Source: a virus. From it: DNA of 64,000 nucleotides. Each line of letters begins with the position of its first letter. The first letter of the stretch is position 1. This document shows positions 1,445-61,694 of the stretch, piece after piece. The stretch is taken from IMG/VR virus record IMGVR_UViG_3300020048_000058; one strand, given 5' to 3'. The notes beneath the pieces were generated by a model, which saw only the letters and a program-made list of their open reading frames with translations, was not told the origin of the DNA and searched no databases. A program made the translations under genes and the position numbers.

Positions 1445-4400
1445 CTAATTACGGGAGAGATTAACCATTTGCTGAATAACATTTTCTAATCTTGGCTCCA
1501 CTTGTTTCTTAATTGATTCCCCCACTTTTTGATCGCCGTTTACGGTAATTGGAATATTTATTGTTGGAGAGATTGTCGTCTGCCCTCTCTCCGTGGCTTG
1601 TTGCAACGCCCGTAAGAAGTCTGGGGGAATACTAGGGGACAAAACGGGAGACAGGGCAGAGGGAAGTTTGAGAGGATCGGTTAGTCGAGGACTGGGAGGC
1701 AAAGCGGAGGGAAGTTTGAGAACTCCGTTCTCCTTTCTCACCTCCATAAATTTATCAGACAGAACTGGAGTTTTAATAACAGGAGCCTCAATAACAGGAG
1801 CCTCAATAACAGGTGGGTCAATAACCGGAGTTTTAATAACAGGAGTTTCAATAACCGGAGTTTCAATAACCGGAGTTTCAATAACAGGTGGGTCAATAAC
1901 CGGAGTTTTAATAACAAGAGTTTCAATAACCGGAGTTTTAATAACAGGAGTTTCAATAACCGGAGTTTCAATAACAGGCGGGTCAATAACAGGCGGGTCA
2001 ATAACAGGAGTTTCAATAATAGGTGGGTTAATAACCGGTGGGTTAATAACAGGAGTTTCAATAATAGGTGGGTTAATAATAGGTGGGTTAATAACCGGAG
2101 TTTCAATAACAGGCGGGTCAATAATAGGTGGGTTAATAACAGGAGTTTCAATAATAGGTGGGTTAATAACAGGAGTTTCAAGAGGATCGGTTAATTTAGG
2201 GCTAAATGCCACAATAGGGGACGGGATGGGAGACAATGCAGAGGGAAGTTTGAGAGGATCTGTTAATTGAGGAGAAGGTGCTGATCCCCCTCCAAGTCCG
2301 CCAGTGAGTTTGTAGATTTCAGAAGATGCGCTACCTGTTGCACCAGAGAACTCCCCATCCCCTCTTATGCTCCGCATTGTTCCCTCTGCGGACATCCCTC
2401 CTGGCAATCTTCTGCTCCCTTTTAATCCACTTTCTCTGAGGGCTTGCTCTCCCGTCGCTGCGGCTCGACCCGTTAGATCGCTTACGCTGCCCACTTCAAA
2501 CCTATCAAGCACACTGGCTTTAATATCTGCAAAACGCTGCCGTTTTAATGATCTGTTACTGGTGTTGTTGGCCAAGTCCACCTGTGCCGAGCGAATGGCC
2601 CCTTGACTACGGAATTCCAACGCTTCTCTCTGGAGTTTGAAAACTTTTGACTGGTTAATGTCTTGTCTCCGTAATAAATCCAAGTTTTGCTCTTGGTAGC
2701 CAACGTTCTCTCCTGCTATATCTGCCGCTGTTTGCAGGTCGTCTAACTCTTCTGGAGTTGTTCTAGGATCTTTCTTGGCTGATTTAAGAGCATTATCAGC
2801 TTTTCTTTTTTCAACTTTCGCATCATTCAACGCCCTTTTAGCAGCTAGTTTATCCCGTTCTATTTCGATACCTTTCATTAATTGTTGGGATATCAGGCTT
2901 TGTTTATCAAATTCAGCTTGCTGGATTGCTGATTTTAATTTAATAGCCGAGATTAATTCAGCGAGTTGTTTTTTCTTCCGTTCAGAGCGTTCTCCTTGGA
3001 CTAAAGCATCTAATTCCCCTGAGTAAAAGCTACTAGCCGCGTCAAACACCCCTTTTTGTGCGTCCTGTAATTCCGAACGCATTTGAAGGGCTTTATTGAG
3101 AATATCGAATTTCCGACTCTGATTATCTAGTTCGTTATTCTGGCGTTTAATAGTGTTCTCATAGGCCTGTGCTTCCTTGTTTAATCCTGCTTCGTATTTC
3201 CTTACGTTTGCATCAATCAACTGCCCCTGAGCCTCAACCAACTGCAACTGGAGCTTGATTTTCTCGCCAGCATCCGTCTCTAAACTAATTTTGGTTTGTA
3301 ATGTTCTAATGGCTTGCTGTGCTATTGTTAGATCATATTCTTCCCCAAAAATCTTCCCTTGGTTTAGCAGGGTTTTTAAGGCAATTATTTCCTTAGTATT
3401 CTTAATCTCGGTTTCGGCAATCTCTAATGCTGCCCAGGCTTCTCGTTCTTCCCCGGTAGCTTTCTCTAGGGACAGTCTTAATTTGGCTTGTTTATTGACA
3501 TCTTTTTCTCGGCTAAGTTGAAATTGCAACTCCTGAACTTTATCGGTAGCACTTGAAGCCCCTTCTAGCTCCCTGAGTGCGTTACCACTATTAATCTGCT
3601 TTTCTATGCTTAATAATTGAGCATCATTCTCTTTGGCGATGTTCCCTAAAACGGTTTGAGTGTGGGCATCCCAGGCTTCCTTCTCGGCTTTCAACATCCC
3701 CAAGGATTGTTGGAGTTGTTCTTGTCTTAGCTTTCTGATTTCGGTTTGTCTGTTAGCCTCTAGTCGTGGGTCTGAGAGTGCGGGTTGAGCTTTTGTTGCC
3801 TCTAGTTTTTTAAACGTGTTATTGTATTCAGACTCAAGAGTTTTGAGGTTGTTTTTAACATTTTCCTCGTCAACTAGGTTTTGATCACCTCCAAATTCAT
3901 TAAACGACTTCTGAACTTCATTTTGTCTAATTAATTCAGCTTCTTTAACTAAATCAACAGTTTTTTTAAGTTGTTTTTCTAGTGCAGAAAGTTCTTGGTC
4001 GTAGCCATCCTTGATTGTTTTTTGACGCTGAACTTGGAGTTTTCCGATTTCGGCGTTGACAGCTTCTCGACCTTCTTTGTCAGTATCCGCTAACTTCTTT
4101 AATTTGTTCTGTTGTTGCCTGATTTGTTCATCTAACCCCTTGATTTGTAATTGTGATTTTTGGCTATTGTAGTTTTCCTCTGTGGATAGTCCTTGAGCAA
4201 GATATCCCTCGATGATTGACTGTTGCTCCTGAAAGTTTTTAACCAGTTCCTCGTTTTTTTTAGATCGTTCCTCTGCAACGACTTTAGTGATATCCGATTC
4301 TATTTTCTTAATTTCTTCCCCTGCTTTTCGGACTGCTTCAAGATTTCCAAAGGATTGTTGTTCAGACTGAATCCGTTGTTGTGCTGCCTTGCGTTCCTCT

Positions 4401-7732: not shown

Positions 7733-7855
7733 ACATTTTAATCCTATAATTTCTTAACTATTCTATCAAAAAATTGGTATTATTGGAAAATTCAAACAAT
7801 TCACCAGAGAGGATGCGAAATTAGTGGGCTGTTTATTCTGATTGACCTATTAATT

Positions 7856-9433
7856 TCAGTTCCCTTGCCTAACTACAGAATAGATAAAATCAAACATTTC
7901 TGGATCGTTCTTAGCTAGGTAAATGGGGTTTCTGTACATTAATTCCAGTCCCATTGATAATACTTCTGTCCCGTAGGTATACACTTTCCCCATATAAGGA
8001 TGTAACCATTTATCAACTTTCGTTATTTCGCTTTTACTATAGCTCCGATTACCCGTCGCTTCTTTTAATGAAACGGCTGACTCCCCTGCGGTTCTTTTGT
8101 TGTAAAAATTCAACACTTTTCGACTAACTGTATTATTATTCCATTCAAGCCAATGCCCCATTTCATGTACTACCGTCGCTATAGAATTGTCGCCGGGAGC
8201 TATTACAACCCCTCCTGTATATTTCCCGTATTTTTCCTTTTTTTCCCTAAAAACTGGATCACCTCCAAAACTTCCAAAGTTCCCACCTGGATCAAACAAG
8301 CTTCTTATTTGATCAATATTGCCAGTGGAAACACTTGCCATAGAGGAAAAGCCATTTATGCCTACTAATTGAGAAAAAGCCTCAACACCTTTCTTGTAAA
8401 GAGCCTCTGATCCTTCGTCGCTTGCCTTGTAATAGACATCGACAACAATCGGGGAGTCAGATTTTACTATTTGTCTAGCTTCTTCCAATTTGTCTGATAC
8501 TGTCTTTTTGGCAGTTACAATCCGCTCCATTGTTGATTCCAGAAGAAAAGTTGCTTCCTCTGGGTTCTTTTTCGTTAGCTTGTTTACTCTCTTTTGTATT
8601 TGAGTCATCTCATCCAATAGACTTTCTATTGGTTTTTCCTCAAATAATGATACGGGCGTTTTTATCCCTTCAAATATTAACTCGTCACCAAAATCTTTTA
8701 TTAATTGCTCGCGCTTGTTTTTTGCTTCTGCCATCAATAATTTTTCTTGTTTAGCTTGCCTTTCTTCATAGGTTTCATAAAGATTAACCAGAGGAGGTGT
8801 CGTAACAATTTCCCTTGTTTTTTTCGTTTTATATTCTTCCCTTTTTCTTTGTACTTCCTCCCAGTTCTTTATTAACAAGGGTTCTGTTATTTTCTTGAGT
8901 TCATCAGCTTTTTTAAGAAATTCTTTTTCTTCTTCTGGTAAAACGCCTGATTTTATTGACCGTCTTAAATATTTCGCTCGTAATTCGTTTAATTTAAAAA
9001 GCCTGTCCTGAGAAAAATCGTCCTGAGCATTGGCTCTGCAACTTTTCTTGATATTGATACAGATACTTCCACAATTATAGGAAGTTGGCTTTACGCACTG
9101 TGCTTTCTCCCTTTTCGCTCCCCCTGCATCAATTCGGTAAGAATAACCTGCCGAGAAGTCTTCCCAATCCTTTAAATCAACACCCCGACTATCAATTCGA
9201 GGAGTAAATGGCTTATAAGTAACAGACCGCTTGTTAATCTCAAAGGAAAACACACGAGATCTGGTTAAGTCCCTAAACCGCCCTGTTATCTTTTCATTCT
9301 CCAGGGTTCCAGGATCGAAATCTAGCACAATGACCAGAGCATTATAGGCAAAAGGCATTGACAAGATTTGACCTATTGCCAATCTCATCTGAGCTTTTGT
9401 TGGAGCCGTGCTAGAGGTGAAAGATTGAACCAT
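7856..9433 (-). CDS. effector-family paralog: shared N-terminal module + 4-Cys motif + C-terminal HExxH metallopeptidase
   Basis: The N-terminus has APTKAQMRLAIGQILSMPFAYNALVIVLDFD...GRFRDLTRSRVFSFEI...YKPF...WEDFSAGYSYRID, followed by QCVKPTSYNCGSICINIKKSC. The C-terminus has VVHEMGHWLEW and the conserved tail KVDKWLHPYMGKVY...LSMGLELMYRNP...DPEMFDFIYSVVR. Confidence 0.8.
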   Translation of the reverse strand: MVQSFTSSTAPTKAQMRLAIGQILSMPFAYNALVIVLDFDPGTLENEKITGRFRDLTRSRVFSFEINKRSVTYKPFTPRIDSRGVDLKDWEDFSAGYSYRIDAGGAKREKAQCVKPTSYNCGSICINIKKSCRANAQDDFSQDRLFKLNELRAKYLRRSIKSGVLPEEEKEFLKKADELKKITEPLLIKNWEEVQRKREEYKTKKTREIVTTPPLVNLYETYEERQAKQEKLLMAEAKNKREQLIKDFGDELIFEGIKTPVSLFEEKPIESLLDEMTQIQKRVNKLTKKNPEEATFLLESTMERIVTAKKTVSDKLEEARQIVKSDSPIVVDVYYKASDEGSEALYKKGVEAFSQLVGINGFSSMASVSTGNIDQIRSLFDPGGNFGSFGGDPVFREKKEKYGKYTGGVVIAPGDNSIATVVHEMGHWLEWNNNTVSRKVLNFYNKRTAGESAVSLKEATGNRSYSKSEITKVDKWLHPYMGKVYTYGTEVLSMGLELMYRNPIYLAKNDPEMFDFIYSVVRQGN

Positions 9434-45395: not shown

Positions 45396-47090
45396 ATGGG
45401 AATGTTTTCGGATATTGATTATTCTTTGATTGTTTTGCAATTAGAGAAGGCAATGGCTAATGGTGTGGCTACCTTGGATTCAAATACTAAGGTTCCTAAA
45501 GCTCAGATTAGTTTAACCGCTTCTGATGTTGGTGCGATCGCGTCTACTGGCAACGAAGTTTTAACAAGTTTAAACGCCGCGTCTGGCACAATTTCATCTG
45601 GGCTTTTACCGTCTTATGTTGATGATGTCCTGAGTTATACAAACCTTGCCGGGTTCCCAGGTACTGGCGAAGCTGGAAAGATTTACGTTGCAGAAGATTC
45701 CAATAAAGTTTACCGATGGTCGGGTTCTGTTTATGTTGAGATATCGAGTTCTGCTACTGCGGGAGAGGCTTTAAAACTAACCACGCCACGGACAATTGAA
45801 GCGACGGGAGATGCAAGTTATTCGGCATCTTTTGATGGTTCAACCAATGTTACAAGTGCGATAACACTGGCAACGGTCAATAATAATACTGGTTCTTTCG
45901 GTAGCGCTAGTTCAATTCCTGCTATTACTGTCAATGCTAAGGGTCAAGTAACTGCGGTTTCAACTAACAGTATCGGGAATGAATTAATTGCATTACAATC
46001 TTTAGCTGACACCCCAGGATTTTTAAAGAAAACTGGTAACGGGACTTATTCTATTGATGTTAATTCCTATCTTTCATTGGCAGGTGGGACTATCACGGGG
46101 GACTTGATTTCAACTAGCGCAACGGCATCAACATCAACAACTACAGGGGCTTTAAGGGTCGCTAGTTTAGGGGTTACGGGTGCTATTTTTGCTGGTACTG
46201 TTAGTGCCAATTCTTACAATTTGATTCCTATTTGGAGAGGAGAGGGAAACATAGGCACAAATACAGTAACAGGAGTTAGTGCGCTTTTGTCCAATACAAC
46301 AGGAGGGAATTTATCTGCCTTTGGAGTTAATTCGCTTCTGTCCAATACCACAGGATGGAATTTATCTGCCTTTGGAGTTAATTCGCTTCTGTCCAATACC
46401 ACAGGATGGAATTTATCTGCCTTTGGAGCTTTTTCGCTTCAGTCCAATACAACAGGAGGGAATTTATCTGCTTTTGGAGTTAGTGCCGGACGCTTTATTT
46501 CCGATGGCGTTACGGGGCTAACAATATCAAATAACTCTTGTTTCTTCGGCATGAACACCAAAGGAACCCAGAACGCAACCAATGAGAACGTATTTGGCTA
46601 CAACGCCACCGGAAACGGCTCAAACACCGTAACAATTGGTGATTCAAATATTACCAATACCTACCTAAGAGGTGTGATATCAACTAATTCCACAACACCT
46701 TCAACCTCTCCCACCACGGGAGCTAGTGTAATTCCTGGGGGTCAAGGGGTTCAGGGAAATCAATATGTTGGGGGTTTTAGTTCTTTGGGTGGGGACGCAA
46801 GTCATCCAGGGATTAAGATTAAGGTGCTAACGGGAACTACGGCAGCAACACAAGGGGGGGGTGTAGGAATAGCTCATGGAATAGCTGATATAAACAAAAT
46901 AATTTCAGTTAATCTTTGGGTGAATACAGGTCAGGGGTTGGGGTTATTTGCACCCCCTAATTATACAAATGGAGCCATCCAATATAATTTTATGCTTTAT
47001 GGGGGTCATATTTCTGTAGAAAATCACCCATCAAACAGTTACAACCTTTTGTCAAAACCAGTCACAATAACAATAATTTACACGGCATAA
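45396..47090 (+). CDS. tail fibre protein candidate with 17-aa tandem repeats
   Basis: 564 aa. The N-terminus (…ANGVATLDSNTKVPKAQI…) and the G-x-rich repeats (LLSNTTGGNLSAFGVNS x4) are typical of phage fibre shafts. Confidence 0.6.
   Translation: MGMFSDIDYSLIVLQLEKAMANGVATLDSNTKVPKAQISLTASDVGAIASTGNEVLTSLNAASGTISSGLLPSYVDDVLSYTNLAGFPGTGEAGKIYVAEDSNKVYRWSGSVYVEISSSATAGEALKLTTPRTIEATGDASYSASFDGSTNVTSAITLATVNNNTGSFGSASSIPAITVNAKGQVTAVSTNSIGNELIALQSLADTPGFLKKTGNGTYSIDVNSYLSLAGGTITGDLISTSATASTSTTTGALRVASLGVTGAIFAGTVSANSYNLIPIWRGEGNIGTNTVTGVSALLSNTTGGNLSAFGVNSLLSNTTGWNLSAFGVNSLLSNTTGWNLSAFGAFSLQSNTTGGNLSAFGVSAGRFISDGVTGLTISNNSCFFGMNTKGTQNATNENVFGYNATGNGSNTVTIGDSNITNTYLRGVISTNSTTPSTSPTTGASVIPGGQGVQGNQYVGGFSSLGGDASHPGIKIKVLTGTTAATQGGGVGIAHGIADINKIISVNLWVNTGQGLGLFAPPNYTNGAIQYNFMLYGGHISVENHPSNSYNLLSKPVTITIIYTA
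46275..46478 (+). repeat. 51-bp coding tandem repeat x4 inside the fibre gene
   Basis: The units are VSALLSNTTGGNLSAFG, VNSLLSNTTGWNLSAFG, VNSLLSNTTGWNLSAFG and AFSLQSNTTGGNLSAFG. Units 2 and 3 are identical at the DNA level. Confidence 0.9.
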
Positions 47091-50270: not shown

Positions 50271-51284
50271 ATGGCAACTAATATTATTATGCTAAATCAA
50301 ATTATTCATGGGGATTGTTTTGAGGTAATGAAAGATATTCCTGACAATTCTATTAATTTAATTTGCACCGATCCGCCATATTTTAAAGTTAAAAAAGACA
50401 GTTGGGATAGACAATGGGATAAACCCGAACACTTCTTAGAATGGATAGACAGGGCGGCGGAGCAATGGCAAAGAGTCTTAAAACCTAATGGATCATTATA
50501 TTGTTTTGCCAGTCCCAAAATGTCTGCTAGGGTTGAGGTTAAGTTGGGAGAAAGGTTAAATATAATTAATCGAGTCACTTGGCAAAAACCACCATTCTCA
50601 ACTAAGGCGGAAATGTTTGTTAAAGAGGATTTAAGGAGATTCTTCCCTACTTCAGAATCAATAATATTCTGTGAACACTACGGAGCAGAAAAAAGGGGGG
50701 TTGTTGGGGAGTTTCTAAGAGCTAGGAGATTAAAGGCACAAACAACTTGCGATGCCATAGAAAAAACATTAGGATATATAGATAGCAAAGGAAGGGGGTC
50801 TCGGCTTTTCTATAGATGGGAGACTGGCGACTCCTTGCCGACTAGCGAAGATTTTTGCAACGCACTAAAAGCACTTAGAGATACTCGTCCGCTTGAGGAA
50901 ATTAAGCGGGAATACGAAGAATTACGCCGTCCATTCAACGTAACTGCCAATGTTCCCTATACAGATGTTTGGACGTTTCCAACAGTATCAGCTTACAAAG
51001 GAAAGCACCCATGCGAGAAGCCATTAGAGCTAATTAAGCACATTATAAAGTCATCAAGCCGTGAGGGTGATTTAGTTTTAGATCCGTTTTGCGGTAGTGG
51101 CACGACGGCAGTAGCCTGCAAAGAATTAAATCGTAATTATATTTGTATTGAAAAGGAAAAGGAATATTTTGATATAGCTTGTGATCGCATCTCCCAGCCT
51201 AGAGAATATTCAGAAACAGAGTTAGAAATTATGGAATTAAATAAACCGGAATTTGAACAATTAAGTTTGTTGGATTTGGTTTGA
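50271..51284 (+). CDS. DNA N6-adenine (N6/N4 class, beta-type) methyltransferase
   Basis: Motif IV is LICTDPPYF near the N-terminus. Motif I is LDPFCGSGTTAVAC near the C-terminus. This IV-then-I order is typical of beta-class amino-methyltransferases. Confidence 0.85.
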   Translation: MATNIIMLNQIIHGDCFEVMKDIPDNSINLICTDPPYFKVKKDSWDRQWDKPEHFLEWIDRAAEQWQRVLKPNGSLYCFASPKMSARVEVKLGERLNIINRVTWQKPPFSTKAEMFVKEDLRRFFPTSESIIFCEHYGAEKRGVVGEFLRARRLKAQTTCDAIEKTLGYIDSKGRGSRLFYRWETGDSLPTSEDFCNALKALRDTRPLEEIKREYEELRRPFNVTANVPYTDVWTFPTVSAYKGKHPCEKPLELIKHIIKSSSREGDLVLDPFCGSGTTAVACKELNRNYICIEKEKEYFDIACDRISQPREYSETELEIMELNKPEFEQLSLLDLV

Positions 51285-54403: not shown

Positions 54404-55291
54404 TTAATCGACACAAGCGCATAGCTTGTTATTCTCTCCAGCTTCAATAAGTGCTTTTTCCATCGGGGTTAATGTTCCAACATCTCCCCAAGCGTATTTA
54501 GTCCGCCCCAAACCTTTCAAAGACCTTAGATCGGCATTTTGTTCCATATCTACTGCCCTTTGATATAGTTCGGGGTGTTTTTCCTTTAGTTCAATAATCT
54601 CGCTAATTTTCCGGTTTGGGCAAAAGAAACAAGATGATTTTGAAGGAACTGGGAGATTAACGGATCTAATTAGAGCATTGCAGTTTTCTTGGTTTAGACC
54701 CCAGTCAATTAAGGGGTATTCTTGTCTGATTCCCTCAAAAAGAAAGTCTCTCGTTGATCCGGTTTTGTCTAGCAACCTAGATAATTCTCCCGTATGTATT
54801 CCGATTAATTGGCGTGGGGTAGAGGTGATTTGTTTTTCCTTGCAATAAATTTTTATCCGCTTATGAACTGGTTGAACCTTCCACTTCATTGAACAAGTTG
54901 AATATCCATAGGCTTTGCTGGGTAACATATTTTTAGTTAAGCATTCTTCTTCAAGATTTGAGTAATCAAACTTTTGTCGTGATGTTCCCATCTGTTTATA
55001 TTTCACCCATTCAATCCCAGGGAATCCTTCTACTAAAAGCCAATTAGAAAAAGTCTCTACCCATTCGTAGGTTTCCGGTAGCTCCGCCCCCGTGTCAGCA
55101 AACAAGATTAAATCGGGTTTAATCCCTTTCAGAATCATTGCTATCAACATGGCGGTGCTATTGGTTCCCCCACCATAGGAAACAACGATAGGAGAGTTTG
55201 GATCGGGTGCGGGTCTATTCTTTAAAATCCAAATAGGGTCTTTAGCCTGAACATCAACATGATCACCAAATAAATCCAATTGAGTTGTCAT
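54404..55291 (-). CDS. PAPS-reductase/PP-loop family protein
   Basis: 295 aa. The N-terminal PP-loop-like VVSYGGGTNSTAMLI and the C-terminal Cys cluster (SSCFFCPN… LCACVD) are typical of phage PAPS-reductase-like proteins. Confidence 0.65.
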   Translation of the reverse strand: MTTQLDLFGDHVDVQAKDPIWILKNRPAPDPNSPIVVSYGGGTNSTAMLIAMILKGIKPDLILFADTGAELPETYEWVETFSNWLLVEGFPGIEWVKYKQMGTSRQKFDYSNLEEECLTKNMLPSKAYGYSTCSMKWKVQPVHKRIKIYCKEKQITSTPRQLIGIHTGELSRLLDKTGSTRDFLFEGIRQEYPLIDWGLNQENCNALIRSVNLPVPSKSSCFFCPNRKISEIIELKEKHPELYQRAVDMEQNADLRSLKGLGRTKYAWGDVGTLTPMEKALIEAGENNKLCACVD

Positions 55292-56135: not shown

Positions 56136-56519
56136 TTAGTTTCCTACAAGAGTAAAGCCGTAAGTCCGTGCCAACTCTTTGGGAGTGCCACTGTCAACAA
56201 CCAAATGATTGCGATAATAAACATAGGTCTTTGTCGGAGTTTCTTGGATTAAATGCGTGCGAGTATCATCTTCCCAGTAGTTAAATTTCTTGTTGGCAGT
56301 CAGTCCATGTGTAAGATTCATTGATGCGTCCCAAATTGTTAACTGTATTGGTTTCTCCACAACCGCCACCGCTTTCAGGGCTTCCAACCGACCTTCAAGT
56401 TGAGTCAATTCAAAAGCCCACTTCCGAACTAAAGACCGGACGCGGGCAAACTTGACTATTAAACTGTTCAGTTGAGAAATTCTTTTAGAAAGTTGGTCGG
56501 CGGTTGTGGAGTTTTTCAT
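56136..56519 (-). CDS. hypothetical protein (127 aa)
   Basis: ORF with a coiled-coil N-terminus. Confidence 0.5.
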   Translation of the reverse strand: MKNSTTADQLSKRISQLNSLIVKFARVRSLVRKWAFELTQLEGRLEALKAVAVVEKPIQLTIWDASMNLTHGLTANKKFNYWEDDTRTHLIQETPTKTYVYYRNHLVVDSGTPKELARTYGFTLVGN

Positions 56520-56590
56520 GTTTTACGCCCGATTTGACGGCGGCGTCCCTGTTTTGCTTATACTAAATATTGTAGCTACAAAATCAAAAT

Positions 56591-56746
56591 ATGTCAACCC
56601 CTAAATCAAAAAAACTTTTCAACCGCCCAACCGTTGTCAGGGTGAGGCTTTCAGAAGTTGAGAGGGAGAGGATAGAGGCGATCGCATCTTCAAGAAATCT
56701 ATCCCTCTCGGAATTGATAAGGTATTGGATCAATAATAGAGGATGA
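56591..56746 (+). CDS. ribbon-helix-helix (CopG/MobC-like) small DNA-binding protein, 51 aa, not in the ORF track
   Basis: The translation is MSTPKSKKLFNRPTVVRVRLSEVERERIEAIASSRNLSLSELIRYWINNRG. It has the beta-strand (VVRVRLS), helix and SLSELIR pattern of RHH regulators. Confidence 0.55.
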   Translation: MSTPKSKKLFNRPTVVRVRLSEVERERIEAIASSRNLSLSELIRYWINNRG

Positions 56747-56779
56747 CGATACAGCTTTCCTTATTCCAGAAAGCAGAAA

Positions 56780-57499
56780 TTAGGGAGCAAGCCGAGCTTT
56801 CCCTAATCTATTTTTTTCATACCAAGCTGAAATCTCAGGAACCCAATCCTGAGTATGGGCCCACATCATTTCAGAGAGTTTTTGAATCTCTAACTGGGCA
56901 TCTTTTTTAAATCTTAAATCGAGAAAATGTAACAGTGAACGCAGGTTACAAGACATAACAAAATGCTGTCTGAAATCGAACGGGATTAAACCTCTAGCGT
57001 GTTCTTCTGACATTCCATTTAAGATATTATTTTTATACATTTCACAAGCATCTAAACAATATCTTAAATGGAAATCTCTTTCAAAATGAGAATATTTATA
57101 TTTTTTCCCTTGGCGGTCAACATATTCACCAACGGGTCTTAGGTAAAATACATCCTCAATATCACGTTTACCATCAACAACATCAATTATTCTTTGACCT
57201 GAATAACGCATCGACTCAACGCTAAAACTCATTATCCTGTGTCGCGTTGCTTGCTGCATTACACTGTGAGGGAAATAGCCAACATTAAATACTATGTAAG
57301 CTGTTTCGGCACAACTCCAATGCCCTCTATCACCTGCTAATAATCTTTTAACTGCTATCTCGCCACACTCTTTTTCTGGGGGGATTTTATCAATGCCTTC
57401 AAACACATAATTCTCGCTATAACATTGATGCAATGCCAGATAAATCATCTGTTGGGGATTAGCTGTTTTTGATAAAACCTCAACCTTGAATTTGTCCAT
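56780..57499 (-). CDS. thyX: flavin-dependent thymidylate synthase ThyX
   Basis: The ThyX signature is present as QQATRHRIMSFSVESMRYS (RHR…S…S.RY). The start is taken at MDKFKVEVL (ATG 57499), which is preceded by GAGGAGG. Confidence 0.9.
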   Translation of the reverse strand: MDKFKVEVLSKTANPQQMIYLALHQCYSENYVFEGIDKIPPEKECGEIAVKRLLAGDRGHWSCAETAYIVFNVGYFPHSVMQQATRHRIMSFSVESMRYSGQRIIDVVDGKRDIEDVFYLRPVGEYVDRQGKKYKYSHFERDFHLRYCLDACEMYKNNILNGMSEEHARGLIPFDFRQHFVMSCNLRSLLHFLDLRFKKDAQLEIQKLSEMMWAHTQDWVPEISAWYEKNRLGKARLAP

Positions 57500-57546
57500 T
57501 AGCCTCCTCTTTTGTGCATCTTTAGTCAAGAAACAATGCAATCGTT

Positions 57547-58314
57547 ATTTCAATCCATAAAATAGGCAATCGTCTATTGCGGGATGGATACTTAAATCAT
57601 CATCAACTAAACAGGGATGTTTCAATCCATAAAATAGGCAATCGTCTATTGCGGGTTTAAACGGGGAACCCAATTGTTTTTAGTCAGGATGTTTCAATCC
57701 ATAAAATAGGCAATCGTCTATTGCGGGTTTTGCTAAGTCGGAATGGTAATTAGCATCAAAATCGTTTCAATCCATAAAATAGGCAATCGTCTATTGCGGG
57801 TTCCCTTTACTTTTAAACTGATAATAGCTATCAGGGTTTCAATCCATAAAATAGGCAATCGTCTATTGCGGGAAAAAGCATACGATACAGCTATAAAAGA
57901 AGGTTATCTATTAGTTTCAATCCATAAAATAGGCAATCGTCTATTGCGGGAAAACCCCTGCATAGGCTTTTCTACCATAGAACGGTTTCAATCCATAAAA
58001 TAGGCAATCGTCTATTGCGAGATCAAAGCCATTAAGAATAGGATAAAAAACATCCAAGTTTCAATCCATAAAATAGGCAATCGTCTATTGCGGGTTTGGG
58101 TCTATCTGTTGGGTTACGACCGGGGGATTAGTGTTTCAATCCATAAAATAGGCAATCGTCTATTGCGGGTTCCGTTTACTCTGGGAACCATTCAAGGCAT
58201 CATTGTTTCAATCCATAAAATAGGCAATCGTCTATTGCGGGTTTATAACCATGTTCTGGGGATGATGCCAGAAGAAGGTTTCAATCCATAAAATAGGCAA
58301 TCGTCTATTGCGGG
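57547..58314 (-). CRISPR. CRISPR array, 11 repeats of 37 bp, 10 spacers of 34-41 bp
   Basis: The repeat on the plus strand is GTTTCAATCCATAAAATAGGCAATCGTCTATTGCGGG. Repeats start at 57547, 57619, 57691, 57764, 57836, 57914, 57985, 58058, 58133, 58205 and 58278. Repeat 1 has A for G at position 1, and repeat 7 ends GCGAG. The spacers are unique. I assign the minus strand for three reasons: the degenerate repeat is distal to the nuclease gene, the nuclease gene is on the minus strand, and in that orientation the repeat ends GGATTGAAAC next to the spacer. Confidence 0.95.
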
Positions 58315-58333
58315 AGCTTAATCCGCAATTGTT

Positions 58334-60007
58334 TCAGGCGTTTCTATCGAAATCACCTAAGCTCATTCGATTTATTATAGCATGAGTTTTGGCGGTTTCG
58401 GCAACTAAAAAATCGTGAACCCCGTTTTTAAACAAATCATCTGGAATTGTTATGGTGTCTGACTTTTTGGTTTTTTTCTTGGTTGCCTTTTTAGAAGAGC
58501 TAGGGGTTGCCGAATTTTTATTAATCAGGAATTTATACCAGAAATTATCGGACAATTCCACACCTTGATTGATTGCCATTTGAGCTAAACCTTTTAACTT
58601 AATGTTCTGTCCTGAGTTGACATCACGAGCAACGGTATAACCACAATTAGAGCATTTGTGAGTGCGTTGAGATAGCTTTTTCTTCTCTTGATGTCCACAC
58701 TTCGCACAACATAAAGTAGTTCCCCAATTATCAACCCGAATCACTAATTTTCCGTGTTCCTTTGCTTTGGTTTCTAATAAATCAATAGCTTGACCAATAG
58801 CTACGTCACTCCCTGTTCTGTTACTTCCTCGTTTGCGTTTTTGATTATTTTTATCGTAGATAACTGTACCATTTTCGGCAACCACTGGATTTCCTTCTGT
58901 GTCTAATTTTGCCTTGGCTTTAGCTTTTCGGTAGACGTTGGCGGGTTTGTAATCCTCAACAAAAATCACGTCAAACCAATTGATTAAATTGGTAGAATGC
59001 CAGTGATTGAATGATCGGCGGTGACGGGCGATTTTCTCATGAAGTTTAGCAATTTTATTATTGAGTTTCTCCCAATTCTTAGTTTTCCCCTCGTTCATTC
59101 GATACTTGCGAGATAATTGTTGCTGCATTTTCCTTAGACGTTTTAGCGATCGCTTTAAAGGTTGTGCAGCCTCAATAGTATGACCATTATCCAATGCCAT
59201 AACAAACTGATGTCCGGGGTCAATTCCACAACATAACCCTGTCTTCTTGGCTTGCTTGACAGGGACGGACGCAGTTAATTGTACATACCACCCCGACGCT
59301 TTTTTGCAAATTTTCATCGGGTTAAAATCGCAACCATACCACCGTTTATCAAATCCAATTACCTCGATATAACCCAATTTTGGAATATTGATCTTACTGT
59401 CCTTAACACCTAGATCCTTAGCGTTGTAATGGATTAAAGTCATTACCTTATCTTTAGCTGTTTTGAAACGTGGACGGCTGTGGCGACCCGCTAGAAATCC
59501 CTCCCAAGCCTTTGATAGTTCATGCGCTACACCTTGAATGAATTTTGCCGGGCAATCGGTGAAATTAACTTTTCGCTCCTCACCTCTAACTAAATAAGTC
59601 ACAATCCGATCCTTGTGGTGCTGATGTCCAAATACCTTTAGGAACCCGTATAGTACCGACTTTTTAGAATCCAGTGAGTCAATAATAGGGCTATTTTCAT
59701 CAATGGCGACGGGATGGATTAACCCCCTTTTCTTCTCGACTCGCTCAATCCCCATCTTCCAATCTGGGATCTCAATTCGTACCCATTGCTTGAGCTTGCG
59801 GTCGTATCGTTGCAGGGGAGTTGCAGGGACGTTAGACTTTGACAGTTTATCGTAAGGGTTCCACTCGTTAAATTCCTCTATCAGTCCTAATGAGCGATTC
59901 CAAACCCACTTACAAACTAGCATCCAATCTTCTAGGGTTCGCTCTTGTTCTGAAGATAGAATGAGTTTAAACTCCTTTGTTCGCACATTTTCGCTAAAAT
60001 TAGACAT
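58334..60007 (-). CDS. compact TnpB-like / Cas12-type RuvC nuclease (557 aa) adjacent to the CRISPR array
   Basis: The N-terminus KEFKLILSSEQERTLEDWMLVCKWVWNRSL follows the TnpB/OrfB pattern. RuvC-I is CCGIDPGHQF, RuvC-II is IFVEDYKP and RuvC-III is VARDVNSGQNIK. The zinc finger is CCAKCGH…HKCSNCGY. A ~95-aa Lys-rich C-terminal extension follows RuvC-III. Confidence 0.8.
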   Translation of the reverse strand: MSNFSENVRTKEFKLILSSEQERTLEDWMLVCKWVWNRSLGLIEEFNEWNPYDKLSKSNVPATPLQRYDRKLKQWVRIEIPDWKMGIERVEKKRGLIHPVAIDENSPIIDSLDSKKSVLYGFLKVFGHQHHKDRIVTYLVRGEERKVNFTDCPAKFIQGVAHELSKAWEGFLAGRHSRPRFKTAKDKVMTLIHYNAKDLGVKDSKINIPKLGYIEVIGFDKRWYGCDFNPMKICKKASGWYVQLTASVPVKQAKKTGLCCGIDPGHQFVMALDNGHTIEAAQPLKRSLKRLRKMQQQLSRKYRMNEGKTKNWEKLNNKIAKLHEKIARHRRSFNHWHSTNLINWFDVIFVEDYKPANVYRKAKAKAKLDTEGNPVVAENGTVIYDKNNQKRKRGSNRTGSDVAIGQAIDLLETKAKEHGKLVIRVDNWGTTLCCAKCGHQEKKKLSQRTHKCSNCGYTVARDVNSGQNIKLKGLAQMAINQGVELSDNFWYKFLINKNSATPSSSKKATKKKTKKSDTITIPDDLFKNGVHDFLVAETAKTHAIINRMSLGDFDRNA

Positions 60008-60008
60008 A

Positions 60009-60028
60009 CCTATTTAAGAAATTGAAAC
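60009..60028 (-). ncRNA. anti-repeat-like element (candidate 3' end of a tracrRNA, or part of the nuclease mRNA leader)
   Basis: The minus strand reads GTTTCAATTTCTTAAATAGG, which matches the first 20 nt of the plus-orientation repeat at 16 of 20 positions. As RNA it would pair with the spacer-proximal CCUAUUUUAUGGAUUGAAAC of a minus-strand crRNA at 18 of 20 positions (16 Watson-Crick, 2 G-U). It ends 1 nt before the nuclease ATG. Confidence 0.5.
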
Positions 60029-60195
60029 GTATGTATTGACATTTCCATTATATACAACTATAGTGGAATCACCGACGTTTAGATCGGCAAGCCAAAAGCT
60101 GCCCTTGGAGCCGAAAGGATTAACGATTAGGCGATGAAGAGGGAATATTCTCTAGCCAGATATGGTTAGCAATTTTAAAAATAGGTAATCAACTT

Positions 60196-60217
60196 AAAGG
60201 GGCTCCGGCCCCTTTTT
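60196..60217. terminator. bidirectional terminator hairpin separating the methyltransferase operon from the nuclease locus
   Basis: AAAGGGGC (60196-60203) pairs with GCCCCTTT (60208-60215) around the loop TCCG. T-runs or A-runs lie on both sides. Confidence 0.65.
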
Positions 60218-60229
60218 AGTAGACTCCAT

Positions 60230-60664
60230 CTATTTTTGAAACCGAAATAAAGAGTCAGCCTTGACAATCTCAATCTCAACACAAAGGGCTTTCAATCTCT
60301 CAAAAGCCACCACCGGATCGGCTTCAAAATCAACTGGACTAGATCCGGTCATCGGAGCGTCGGACACCGCCCCCAATGGCTCAAAGGCACGGGATTTGTT
60401 ATTCCAAAAAAACACTCTGTTAATATGTCGCTCTATTGCTTCCGGTGTTTCGAGAAAACAATAGATAAGTCCTGCGACAATAGCCTGCCTGACATCGGTT
60501 CTGAATCGCCTTTTATCGAGTTTAATTGTCCATAATTCAGATAGAAATTCCTCGTCGGTTTCTACATCATACCAAAGGCACTCACAGGAAAATGTATGTA
60601 GGTCGTTGTCGTGAATCTTTGGGGTAGTTTGAAAGCCTTTTTTAGCGAGTTTAGTTGTTTTCAT
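60230..60664 (-). CDS. hypothetical protein (144 aa)
   Basis: ORF overlapping the 3' end of the C5-methyltransferase gene by 14 nt. Confidence 0.55.
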   Translation of the reverse strand: MKTTKLAKKGFQTTPKIHDNDLHTFSCECLWYDVETDEEFLSELWTIKLDKRRFRTDVRQAIVAGLIYCFLETPEAIERHINRVFFWNNKSRAFEPLGAVSDAPMTGSSPVDFEADPVVAFERLKALCVEIEIVKADSLFRFQK

Positions 60665-61694
60665 GGTTAATTGATTTTAAGATTGCCAGACCTAATTCTT
60701 TAGCCAACAACGGGGGGACGGCATTCCCGATGATTTGCTGAGTCAGGGTTTTTGATTCTGAGAATTTGTAATCATCGGGAAAAGTTTGCAGCCGTGCCGT
60801 CGCCCGTTGGTTGATTCGTTTAATTTGACTTCCCTGTACGATGTCCGCCCAATGGGTAGAGACACCCGCCATAGCTCTAATTGTTGGACAAGGCTTGTTT
60901 TGTGGAGTCGGTAAAATATTCTTGATACAGGCTCCCGCACGGGGGATTAACAAAACGGGTGAATGGGAATTACAGTGACCCGATACGATAGTAAAACTTG
61001 GATCGTTTGACTCCCGAACTGTAGCCTGTCTAATGAGTTGTTTACCAATATCAATTAAGGCTTTTTCTGGCAAATAACCCAGTTCATTCAGTCGTTTAAT
61101 CTGCCAGTCTGCAAGTTCGCAGTCCTGCATTTCTGGGATTAAATCACTAATGGCTTGATACCATCCCTTTTTAGGTTTTGATTCGGGGAAATAGGGGAGG
61201 GGTTCTGAATTTTTAACTGCCCACATAATCAACCGTTTCCGATTTTGGGGAACCCCATAATCCGCCGCGTCTAAAATTAACCAATGATAGCGATATCCGT
61301 TACGGATCAATGATTGTAGGATTTTCTCAAAAGTTGGTGATTTTGAATATCCTGGGACGTTTTCAAGAATCACCCATCGAGGGGATAATATGGCAATATA
61401 ATCACAGCAATAAAGCCCCGCATCTTTATCTTTATGGTCAGGAATATCACCCCGCCGTGCGTTTGAATATTGTTGACAGGGGGGACTCATCCAAAGTAGA
61501 TCAACCCGCTCCATGAGATGAGTGCGAATTTCGCCAACACAAGAGTTGAATACTTTGGTATTGGGAAAATTTAATCGTGCTACTTCTGCAATTTTAGGAT
61601 CTCGCTCAATCCCCCAAATGGACTTAAAACCTGCGGCTTCTAACCCCTTATCTGCACCGCCTCCGCCCATGAATAATGTTGCGAATGTTGGCAT
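60651..61694 (-). CDS. DNA (cytosine-5)-methyltransferase
   Basis: Motif I is FATLFMGGGGADKG, motif IV is MSPPCQQYS, motif VI is ILENVPG, motif VIII is QNRKRL and motif X is GNAVPPLL. Confidence 0.9.
   Translation of the reverse strand: MPTFATLFMGGGGADKGLEAAGFKSIWGIERDPKIAEVARLNFPNTKVFNSCVGEIRTHLMERVDLLWMSPPCQQYSNARRGDIPDHKDKDAGLYCCDYIAILSPRWVILENVPGYSKSPTFEKILQSLIRNGYRYHWLILDAADYGVPQNRKRLIMWAVKNSEPLPYFPESKPKKGWYQAISDLIPEMQDCELADWQIKRLNELGYLPEKALIDIGKQLIRQATVRESNDPSFTIVSGHCNSHSPVLLIPRAGACIKNILPTPQNKPCPTIRAMAGVSTHWADIVQGSQIKRINQRATARLQTFPDDYKFSESKTLTQQIIGNAVPPLLAKELGLAILKSINHENN

Follow-up and report, generated by a model that had tools for sequence, protein, structure and literature searches.

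The window analysed here is the whole 64,000-nt stretch of the viral record IMGVR_UViG_3300020048_000058, and its element of interest is a cassette which combines a gene for a 557-aa Cas12-like nuclease, a CRISPR array and a predicted trans-activating CRISPR RNA (tracrRNA). Very probably this cassette is a self-contained, tracrRNA-dependent type V CRISPR-Cas system of the V-U2 (C2c8) family, carried by a PaV-LD-like cyanophage of the Planktothrix type. To judge from the sequence the system is real and looks functional. A phage-borne, adaptation-less miniature type V locus was the proposal of the initial annotation of this DNA, and it is borne out, with an intact RuvC site. The window is that of a phage: matches to PHROGs families include the portal, the maturation protease, the major head and head decoration proteins and DnaB. 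Compared with the Planktothrix phage PaV-LD, nucleotide identity is 87-89% across about 55-58% of the first 50 kb.

The Cas12 protein and its relatives

The motifs which had been read as TnpB/type V architecture are all present in the protein: KEFKLILSSEQ at residue 11, GIDPG at 261, VEDY at 350, CAKC at 434, CSNC at 452 and RDVNSGQNI at 461. The RuvC triad (D263, E351 and D462) is intact, unlike that of Cas12k, and the zinc finger is made of C434, C437, C452 and C455. A C-terminal extension covers about residue 470 to 557.

Pfam recognizes only the OrfB_IS605 and Cas12f1-like TNB domains. The best model was Cas12u2 in PADLOC (E = 2.6e-107, 358 bits) and V_cas_c2c8 in NCBIfam (7.9e-90, 302 bits), where the generic guided_TnpB model reached 175 bits. 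The Cas12u2 and C2c8 profiles define type V-U2, and the window protein falls there. A profile placement had been suggested as a check: the searches rank V-U2/C2c8 best, and an assignment to transposon TnpB did not stand, the IS200_TnpB model giving only 151 bits against a cut-off of 425. The possibility of a new Cas12 lineage is not upheld either, as these profiles place the protein in a type of which a cyanophage example was published in 2018.

In the PDB the best match of the family profile is Cas12p (E = 3.7e-57, compared with 1e-41 to 1e-49 for TnpB), the RuvC half of which also scores best on the PADLOC model Cas12u2. Cas12p, or "Cas12 hacker" (type V-P), is a phage-encoded protein of 500-700 aa described in a 2025 preprint (bioRxiv 10.1101/2025.01.20.633832; PDB 9jfs, 9jg3). 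According to this preprint it has a 37-nt repeat, a tracrRNA, an AAAC:UUUG pseudoknot at tracrRNA nucleotides 7-10 and a GTN protospacer adjacent motif (PAM); it cleaves double-stranded DNA (dsDNA) and depends on host thioredoxin (TrxA), its hosts not being identified at the time; and 11 of the 12 proteins described are more than 70% identical to each other. An AlphaFold2 model of the window protein (mean pLDDT 82.6), for which the alignment left out the row of the protein of cyanophage CL131, has as best structural matches TnpB (8iaz, 8h1j), Cas12p-TrxA (9jfs, 9jg3), LaTranC and Cas12f.

Relatives were collected as follows: 35 viral contigs of IMG/VR, 8 genome contigs (cyanobacteria or mis-binned metagenome-assembled genomes), CL131 and several metagenome contigs. 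Their proteins are 28% to 99% identical to the window protein, and the genomic ones were found in Floridaenema, Geitlerinema, Leptolyngbyaceae, Dolichospermum and Nostoc. Directly downstream of the gene and on its strand, 36-37-nt repeats form an array in all but 3 of the 44 loci that were checked first; the exceptions are L028, L037 and L044, of which L028 and L044 end 34-341 bp past the gene. The repeats end in TTGAAAC, TTGAAAG, TTGCAAG or TGGCAAG. Since this linkage holds down to 28% identity, it is a property of the family and not a chance adjacency. The family alignments show no variation at D263, at D462 or at the four cysteines of the zinc finger, and the window clade also keeps the RuvC-II glutamate.

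Some relatives show particularities. In the subclade P0007-P0011 (e.g. L064 and L065), 39-42% identical to the window protein, a glycine replaces the RuvC-II glutamate and the motif reads FVGD, FLGD or FLGEG instead of FVEDY; the catalytic site may be rearranged or inactive. Arrays are kept in this subclade, and L064 also keeps the tracrRNA. Locus L062 contains, at 1-406, about 2 kb upstream of its V-U2 gene, a second and larger TnpB/Cas12-like gene (664 aa, TNB domain). A 3.4-kb contig with the phage cassette (L041, JBIPMB010000293.1) is binned in a "Gammaproteobacteria" metagenome-assembled genome from Lake Mendota, which is probably a binning error.

Array, tracrRNA and their pairing

The array corresponds to its first description in every respect: 11 repeats of 37 bp, ten spacers of 34-41 bp, all unique, and a start 19 bp past the stop codon of the gene. 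Repeats follow each other with a start-to-start spacing of 71-78 nt, and on the + strand they read GTTTCAATCCATAAAATAGGCAATCGTCTATTGCGGG. One internal repeat carries a single change. The gene-distal repeat (57547-57583) is degenerate in the manner of a trailer repeat and ends in ...GAAAT in the gene direction; together with the distal spacers shared between loci, this puts the leader at the gene end, that is at position 58314. The orientation of the array, in the gene direction, follows from the 5' PAM and from the complementarity with the tracrRNA. The leader overlaps the last codons of cas12, and a putative array promoter of the extended -10 type (TGcTATAAT), kept in relatives, lies within the 3' end of the gene. 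The DNA which codes for the Lys-rich C-terminal tail thus doubles as array leader, and the C-terminal domain of Cas12p is also disordered, so that the tail is no anomaly.

Upstream of cas12, a terminator at 60196-60217 had been interpreted as insulating the locus. It is rather the 3' end of a predicted divergent tracrRNA, overlooked in the initial annotation, which lies on the opposite strand within a 220-bp region. Relatives have kept this whole block, promoter to terminator, and directly past the terminator the similarity ends. Its promoter, of sigma-70 type and also kept in relatives, is the best promoter-like site of the region. Fifteen versions of the element were aligned, including those of L042, L062, L063 and L064, whose proteins are about 36-43% identical. 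RNAalifold predicted 26 pairs, 16 of them with compensatory changes; 92% of the cells can pair on the predicted structure, compared with 44-59% when partners are slid, and the observed covariation was reached by none of 500 shuffles. The + strand folds at -41.2 kcal/mol and the - strand at -35.0 kcal/mol, and read on the + strand the stem has a large number of G.U pairs; this indicates that the tracrRNA is read divergently from cas12. We discarded a reading of this element as a 5' untranslated region (5'UTR) or tracrRNA on the - strand: there the G.U pairs would become C.A, the promoter and the U-run are on the + strand, and the + strand folds better. A scan of positions 56500-61000 against Rfam returned nothing relevant.

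The anti-repeat can pair with nucleotides 13-33 of the repeat at 19 of 21 positions. For seven repeat types, the repeat:anti-repeat duplexes have a mean of -23.1 kcal/mol when cognate versus -13.6 kcal/mol when non-cognate. Every cognate duplex ends at repeat nucleotide 33-34 and leaves the terminal AAAC or AAAG free. In the window these free nucleotides, AAAC, can pair in silico with GUUU at tracrRNA nucleotides G7-U10, as a pseudoknot. This pairing covaries: AAAC is found with GUUU (window clade and L064), AAAG with CUUU (L042, L062 and L063). From the complementarity between tracrRNA and repeat it follows that the CRISPR RNA (crRNA) would be transcribed in the gene direction. Covariation of the stem, of the anti-repeat and of the pseudoknot thus supports a tracrRNA-dependent system, as predicted from these alignments.

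An inverted and degenerate copy of the 3' part of the repeat stands between the cas12 ATG and the promoter of the tracrRNA; as 5'UTR of the cas12 mRNA it could pair with the repeat at 19 of its last 21 bases. Such copies, matching the repeat of each locus, are present in L002 (two copies), L042, L062 and L064, and are not clear in L063 and L066. This pseudo-repeat may serve autoregulation or be a relic of the origin of the tracrRNA. Its interpretation as a CreR-like mini-crRNA directed against its own promoter was rejected: the only match is its own template, which has no GTN PAM. In the CL131 clade, the gap that separates effector gene and array holds a candidate anti-repeat, on the gene strand: at 4477-4516 in L001 (CL131), at 4986-5025 in L032 (about 29 nt) and at 2643-2682 in L036.

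Protospacers and spacer turnover

Targets were looked for in 25 metagenome loci, fetched via a targeted open reading frame (ORF) of 166 aa, and in 4 viral loci (137 kb). Half of the window spacers (2, 3, 4, 7 and 8) match one and the same group of sibling phages (Table 1). Spacer 7 matches an 87-kb IMG/VR contig of this group at 35/35 positions, and spacer 8 is present in four sister arrays. Structural genes of the 87-kb contig are 92-97% identical in nucleotides to those of the window; the targeted module is absent from the window, and the contig carries the same cassette at another site. The 166-aa target ORF had been given a Rad52-like (single-strand annealing protein) label from its likeness by eye; this label was dropped, as there is no Pfam match.

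Considering all spacers of the clade, GT stands at positions -3/-2 for 10 of the 10 spacers matched with at least 95% identity and for 17 of the 18 matched with at least 90%, whereas its background frequency is 0.056 (P about 1e-20). Protospacers show no 3' motif and lie on both target strands. From these natural protospacers the PAM is predicted to be 5'-GTN. No match at E <= 1 was found for the 119 clade spacers in GenBank phages. Compared with the window and with all cassette loci, they gave chance 15-nt matches only, i.e. no self-targeting. Exact scans of IMG/VR with window spacers 1 and 2 returned zero matches, and degenerate patterns for two "hot" spacer families found arrays only, plus one distant homologue (23/35) which is not a true protospacer. 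The spacer search called for in the initial annotation was therefore productive in part: it delivered targets for five of the ten spacers and a PAM, and nothing in GenBank phages. The suggestion of a weapon against competing phages has direct support in spacers which match sibling phages beside a consistent GTN PAM. The picture is that of mosaic sibling phages which would aim the system at each other's variable modules.

Sixteen loci have a Cas12 99% identical to that of the window, with 4 to 11 repeats and largely differing spacers. Gene-proximal spacers differ most and the gene-distal (trailer) ones are common; the furthest repeat is degenerate in 15 of the 16 loci, the exception ending at a contig end. 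This comparison of loci shows arrays which turn over in a polarised manner, new spacers apparently entering at the gene-proximal end. Irregular arrays were observed as well. In L002 (7691-8745) a composite array has ten repeats CTGAGAATTCTAATTTTTGCC... followed by five variant repeats CTCGAAATTCCTTTTAATGCC... that match the repeat of L023, which suggests recombination between arrays or repeat replacement. In the arrays of L010, L011, L012 and L015 one and the same spacer, cut down to 16 nt (AGAGATATTCTTGATG), stands before a variant repeat (GACAATTG) at differing positions, and the L013 array has one spacer duplicated. Each of these observations points to deletion or recombination within arrays.

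Where new spacers come from was considered in the light of the adaptation genes. None of cas1, cas2 and cas4 had been seen in the 64 kb, and the PADLOC scan agrees: 54 of the 63 window ORFs of at least 60 aa have no match to Cas1, Cas2 or Cas4, and for the nine others the best 25 of 159 families matched include no model of these proteins. Three of these nine ORFs have an identity in Pfam (Cas12, C5- and N6/N4-methyltransferase) and one has no Pfam match. Across 185,579 species representatives, no other genome contains the window repeat in its exact form, which speaks against a repeat simply belonging to a host CRISPR-Cas system. A related repeat form, GCCGCAAT...CCCTATCAGGGATTGAAAC, of 37 nt, is found in large arrays of Tychonema, Microcoleus, Lyngbya and Nostoc. 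These host arrays share with the phage repeat the length and the termini (..CGCAAT and GGATTGAAAC). Host repeats carry a Cas6-type hairpin, CCCTATCAGGG, before the handle ATTGAAAC; in the phage repeat the hairpin is disrupted to GCCTATTTTATGG. One Lyngbya array of the host type is preceded by cas1 and cas2 (best model Cas2d), and the V-U2 arrays of L062 and L063 share the host leader motif GAACCTTGAAAACCA....

In type I-D systems, GTN is the PAM both for selection by Cas4-Cas1-Cas2 and for interference (PMC5896167). Hsieh and Peters proposed earlier that V-K and V-U2 arrays are served by I-D adaptation, with sharing among I-D, III, V-K and V-U2 arrays. Because the phage repeat keeps the host termini and length, and because its PAM is that of I-D, we consider with moderate confidence that a host type I-D-like Cas1-Cas2(-Cas4) acting in trans would be the most likely source of spacers. 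The likeness to V-K repeats remarked in the initial annotation is real, and it is general: it reflects a 37-nt repeat family common to cyanobacterial I-D, III, V-K and V-U2 arrays.

The mechanism that these elements suggest is the following. Transcription of the array would start at the promoter inside the 3' end of cas12 and run in the gene direction; the 147-nt tracrRNA would be made divergently, from its own sigma-70-type promoter. The anti-repeat would pair with repeat nucleotides 13-33 and the terminal AAAC with tracrRNA G7-U10, the pseudoknot being like that of Cas12p. A complex of Cas12, tracrRNA and crRNA would then recognise dsDNA beside the 5'-GTN PAM and the RuvC site would cut it; cleavage is proposed because the catalytic residues are intact and because of the Cas12p experiments. 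Lacking the Cas6 hairpin, the phage repeat would give crRNAs that stay private to Cas12. As the protospacer matches place the targets in modules of sibling phages with no counterpart in the 64 kb of the carrier, competition between phages during co-infection is the most likely use. A tentative joint reading, for which we claim less than even confidence, is that host I-D Cas1-Cas2-Cas4 would refill the array during infection and so arm a private Cas12 against siblings, that only spacers against modules which the phage lacks would be kept, and that the pseudo-repeat in the cas12 5'UTR might sense crRNA/tracrRNA levels.

Setting, competing explanations and related systems

Coordinates are collected in Table 1. 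The two neighbouring genes, thyX and the C5-methyltransferase, had been correctly named, as Pfam confirms. PaV-LD has no cassette at the corresponding site: the span of thyX and cassette (56737-60266) corresponds there to 7849-8219, that is to 370 bp with ORF012R, a hypothetical gene of 106 aa. The cassette of L018 adjoins a homologue of window positions 2211-3906, and the 87-kb contig has it at a third site, so that three differing phage sites were observed, which speaks of movement. Elsewhere in the window, the PAPS-reductase domain protein is possibly the ORF behind a PADLOC match to SspD, and a small ORF matches the PADLOC model "Unk_01, sometimes fused to CARF" (E = 3.8e-11). Short direct repeats, three copies each with 15-21-nt cores and a spacing of 50-100 nt, are present at 1767-1916, within a structural gene of 1875 aa, and at 46306-46428.

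Table 1. Features of the cassette and of its surroundings in the window.
Feature	Position	Strand	Remarks
GIY-YIG domain protein	431-1165
N6/N4 DNA methyltransferase	50271-51284
PAPS-reductase domain protein	54404-55291
thyX	56780-57541		Pfam Thy1, E = 5e-42
Whole cassette (tracrRNA, cas12, array)	57547..60234		one block common to phage contigs with differing flanks
CRISPR array	57547..58314	-	11 repeats of 37 nt, 10 spacers; repeat in gene direction CCCGCAATAGACGATTGCCTATTTTATGGATTGAAAC
Spacer 8, 36 nt	57728..57763	-	36/36 to metagenome contig L069; PAM GTA
Spacer 7, 35 nt	57801..57835	-	35/35 to 166-aa ORF of sibling-phage contigs L054 and L087; PAM GTT
Spacers 2, 3, 4	58022..58204	-	33/35, 33/38 and 34/36 to the same sibling-phage group; PAMs GTT, GTC and GTA
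Array leader	58315..58382	-	overlaps last cas12 codons; putative extended -10 promoter TGcTATAAT at 58374-58382
cas12, type V-U2 / C2c8 kind, 557 aa	58334..60007	-	stop 19 bp from nearest repeat
Inverted degenerate copy of 3' part of repeat	60008..60029	+	ACCTATTTAAGAAATTGAAAC; between cas12 ATG and tracrRNA promoter
Predicted tracrRNA promoter	60036..60064	+	TTGACA-17 nt-TATAGT, 11/12 consensus positions
Predicted tracrRNA, about 147 nt	60071..60217	+	GUUU pseudoknot motif 60077-60080; anti-repeat 60170-60190
tracrRNA terminator	60199-60217	+	hairpin and U-run; tracrRNA 3' end
C5-methyltransferase	60651-61694		Pfam DNA_methylase, E = 3e-53

Several points weigh against a functional V-U2 system which would behave like Cas12p and gain spacers from its host. 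The V_cas_c2c8 score of 302 bits is lower than the strict cut-off of 350, and the shuffle z-score for the fold of the single tracrRNA sequence is weak (-1.56). The window protein is about 25-30% identical to the CL131 effector and to Cas12p, so that the properties of Cas12p are extrapolated to the window. Of the 119 clade spacers, only 27 have an identified target with at least 80% identity, the match being perfect in seven cases. Array differences could partly be due to recombination between arrays and not to new acquisition, as pointed to by shared internal blocks and by the shared 16-nt truncated spacer. Finally, the window leader falls within coding DNA of cas12 and its likeness to the host leader motif is only weak, and the part of the phage genome beyond the 64 kb could hold adaptation genes as well.

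Four other explanations were weighed. Binding without cutting, by which transcription would be regulated or silenced, has been suggested for V-U systems and shown for Cas12m; the CL131 paper (PMC6293099) proposed a regulatory role, and the related subclade P0007-P0011 without the canonical RuvC-II glutamate would suit it; we find it unlikely for the window protein, in which D263, E351 and D462 are intact (D263 and D462 being invariant in the family), given that the related Cas12p cleaves dsDNA and protects against phages and that both strands of rival-phage genes are matched with a strict PAM. The array could also be a phage "mini-array" using host class 1 effectors (I-D or III), as has been proposed for cyanophage N-1, and unrelated to the Cas12-like gene. 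The covariation of a dedicated tracrRNA with the repeat and the family-wide linkage of gene and array make this very unlikely; the termini, the 37-nt length and the ATTGAAAC 3' end common to host arrays speak for it, as does the I-D PAM, whereas the Cas6-type hairpin CCCTATCAGGG is disrupted in the phage repeat and the exact repeat is absent from the other representative genomes.

An ordinary IS200/IS605 TnpB with its own omega RNA, placed by chance beside an orphan array, is largely refuted and keeps hardly any probability. It would account for the OrfB_IS605 and TNB domains in Pfam, for TnpB among the structural neighbours, and for a cassette which, being at differing sites in related phages, moves; yet the array has the same place and orientation in nearly all relatives down to 28% identity, anti-repeat and pseudoknot covary with the repeat across loci, and the IS200_TnpB score stays well under its cut-off. 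The several transposon-bounded copies that such an element might present were not found: in the window we saw a single copy, no tnpA and no insertion sequence ends. Equally improbable is a Cas12a-like system working with crRNA only, in which the array would be read on the + strand with the repeat hairpin GCAAT-CGTCT-ATTGC as handle. The repeat can indeed fold a 5-bp hairpin beside the spacer on that strand, and a V-A-like hairpin was remarked by the CL131 authors (PMC6293099). However, GTN would then fall 3' of the protospacer, unlike in any type V system, the degenerate trailer repeat and the polarity of turnover put the leader at the gene end, and the covariation of tracrRNA and repeat would be left unexplained.

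The preferred reading, a tracrRNA-dependent V-U2 system, can be compared with known ones. Cas12p shares with the window a phage-encoded miniature Cas12, a 37-nt repeat ending in AAAC, GUUU at tracrRNA nucleotides 7-10 and a 5'-GTN PAM; no adaptation genes are mentioned for it, and its C-terminal domain is poorly ordered. Sequence similarity is nevertheless low (phmmer against 9jfs, E = 7e-7), and the RuvC half of Cas12p reaches no more than 38% identity with any of the relatives collected. Judging from the PDB alignment, Cas12p is about 60 aa longer in its N-terminal half, with a thioredoxin-binding domain; an insertion of the window protein, residues 50-150, sits at the position of this domain, and the region did not align with Cas12p. 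Cas12p had not previously been linked to cyanophages or to V-U2. On this evidence the window system is predicted to work like Cas12p and to belong to the V-U2 assemblage, outside the narrow Cas12p cluster as far as compared, the divergent "hacker-2" sequence being left out.

Type V-U2 (C2c8) is a predicted subtype common in cyanobacteria. A V-U2 locus was published in 2018 for cyanophage vB_AphaS-CL131, a relative of PaV-LD; its authors described no tracrRNA and did not settle in which direction the array is read (PMC6293099). As in the window, a TnpB-like effector with Cas12u2 as best PADLOC model is followed by an array (10 spacers, 36-nt repeats), with no other cas genes. The CL131 protein is 30% identical to that of the window over 84% of the protein. 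Its gene and array are separated by about 256 bp with a candidate anti-repeat on the same strand, whereas the window tracrRNA is upstream and divergent, and its repeat ends in GGTAAG instead of GAAAC.

Cas12k (type V-K, formerly V-U5) has in common with the window a cyanobacterial setting, a GTN PAM, 37-nt repeats of the same family, dependence on a tracrRNA, the lack of its own adaptation genes and the proposal that I-D adaptation serves it in trans. In CRISPR-associated transposons (CAST) it has no catalytic activity and acts together with Tn7-like transposition proteins, in contrast to the window protein which keeps its RuvC triad. No Cas12k model was among the NCBIfam or PADLOC matches of the window protein, the V-K model itself not having been run, and no Tn7-like transposition genes (tnsB, tnsC, tniQ) were seen beside the cassette. 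With TnpB of IS200/IS605 elements (ISDra2, ISFba1) the protein shares the WED domain, a short REC domain, RuvC and the zinc finger, and also a guide 3' of the RNA scaffold and a guide locus downstream of the gene. TnpB is without the insertion of about 100 aa found at residues 50-150, and uses an omega RNA and a target-adjacent motif (TAM) derived from the transposon where the window has an array, a separate tracrRNA and a 3-nt PAM. The orphan array of cyanophage N-1 is also borne by a cyanophage, with repeats resembling those of its host; it comes without an effector gene and presumably relies on Cas proteins of the host (PMC6293099), while the window has its own effector and tracrRNA.

A cyanophage V-U2 locus (2018) and Cas12p (2025) are thus already known. 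What is added here is a defined tracrRNA with its pseudoknot, a natural GTN PAM, direct evidence that sibling phages are targeted and that arrays turn over, and a link between V-U2, Cas12p and the repeat/leader family of host I-D systems. The locus joins three lines treated apart in the literature consulted: the uncharacterised cyanobacterial V-U2 / C2c8, the V-U2 locus of CL131, and the biochemically characterised phage Cas12p. The same PAM, the same pseudoknot and the same best profile suggest that all three belong to one broad family at home in cyanophages and cyanobacteria. With its defined tracrRNA and its GTN PAM, the 557-aa nuclease is in addition a candidate for compact genome editing. 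The sister contigs give evidence, from natural populations, that the array of an adaptation-less phage gains spacers in a polarised manner and that these are aimed at the mosaic relatives of its carrier. Two questions become directly testable in this way: the acquisition of spacers by V-U arrays, and the use that phages make of the CRISPR systems they encode.

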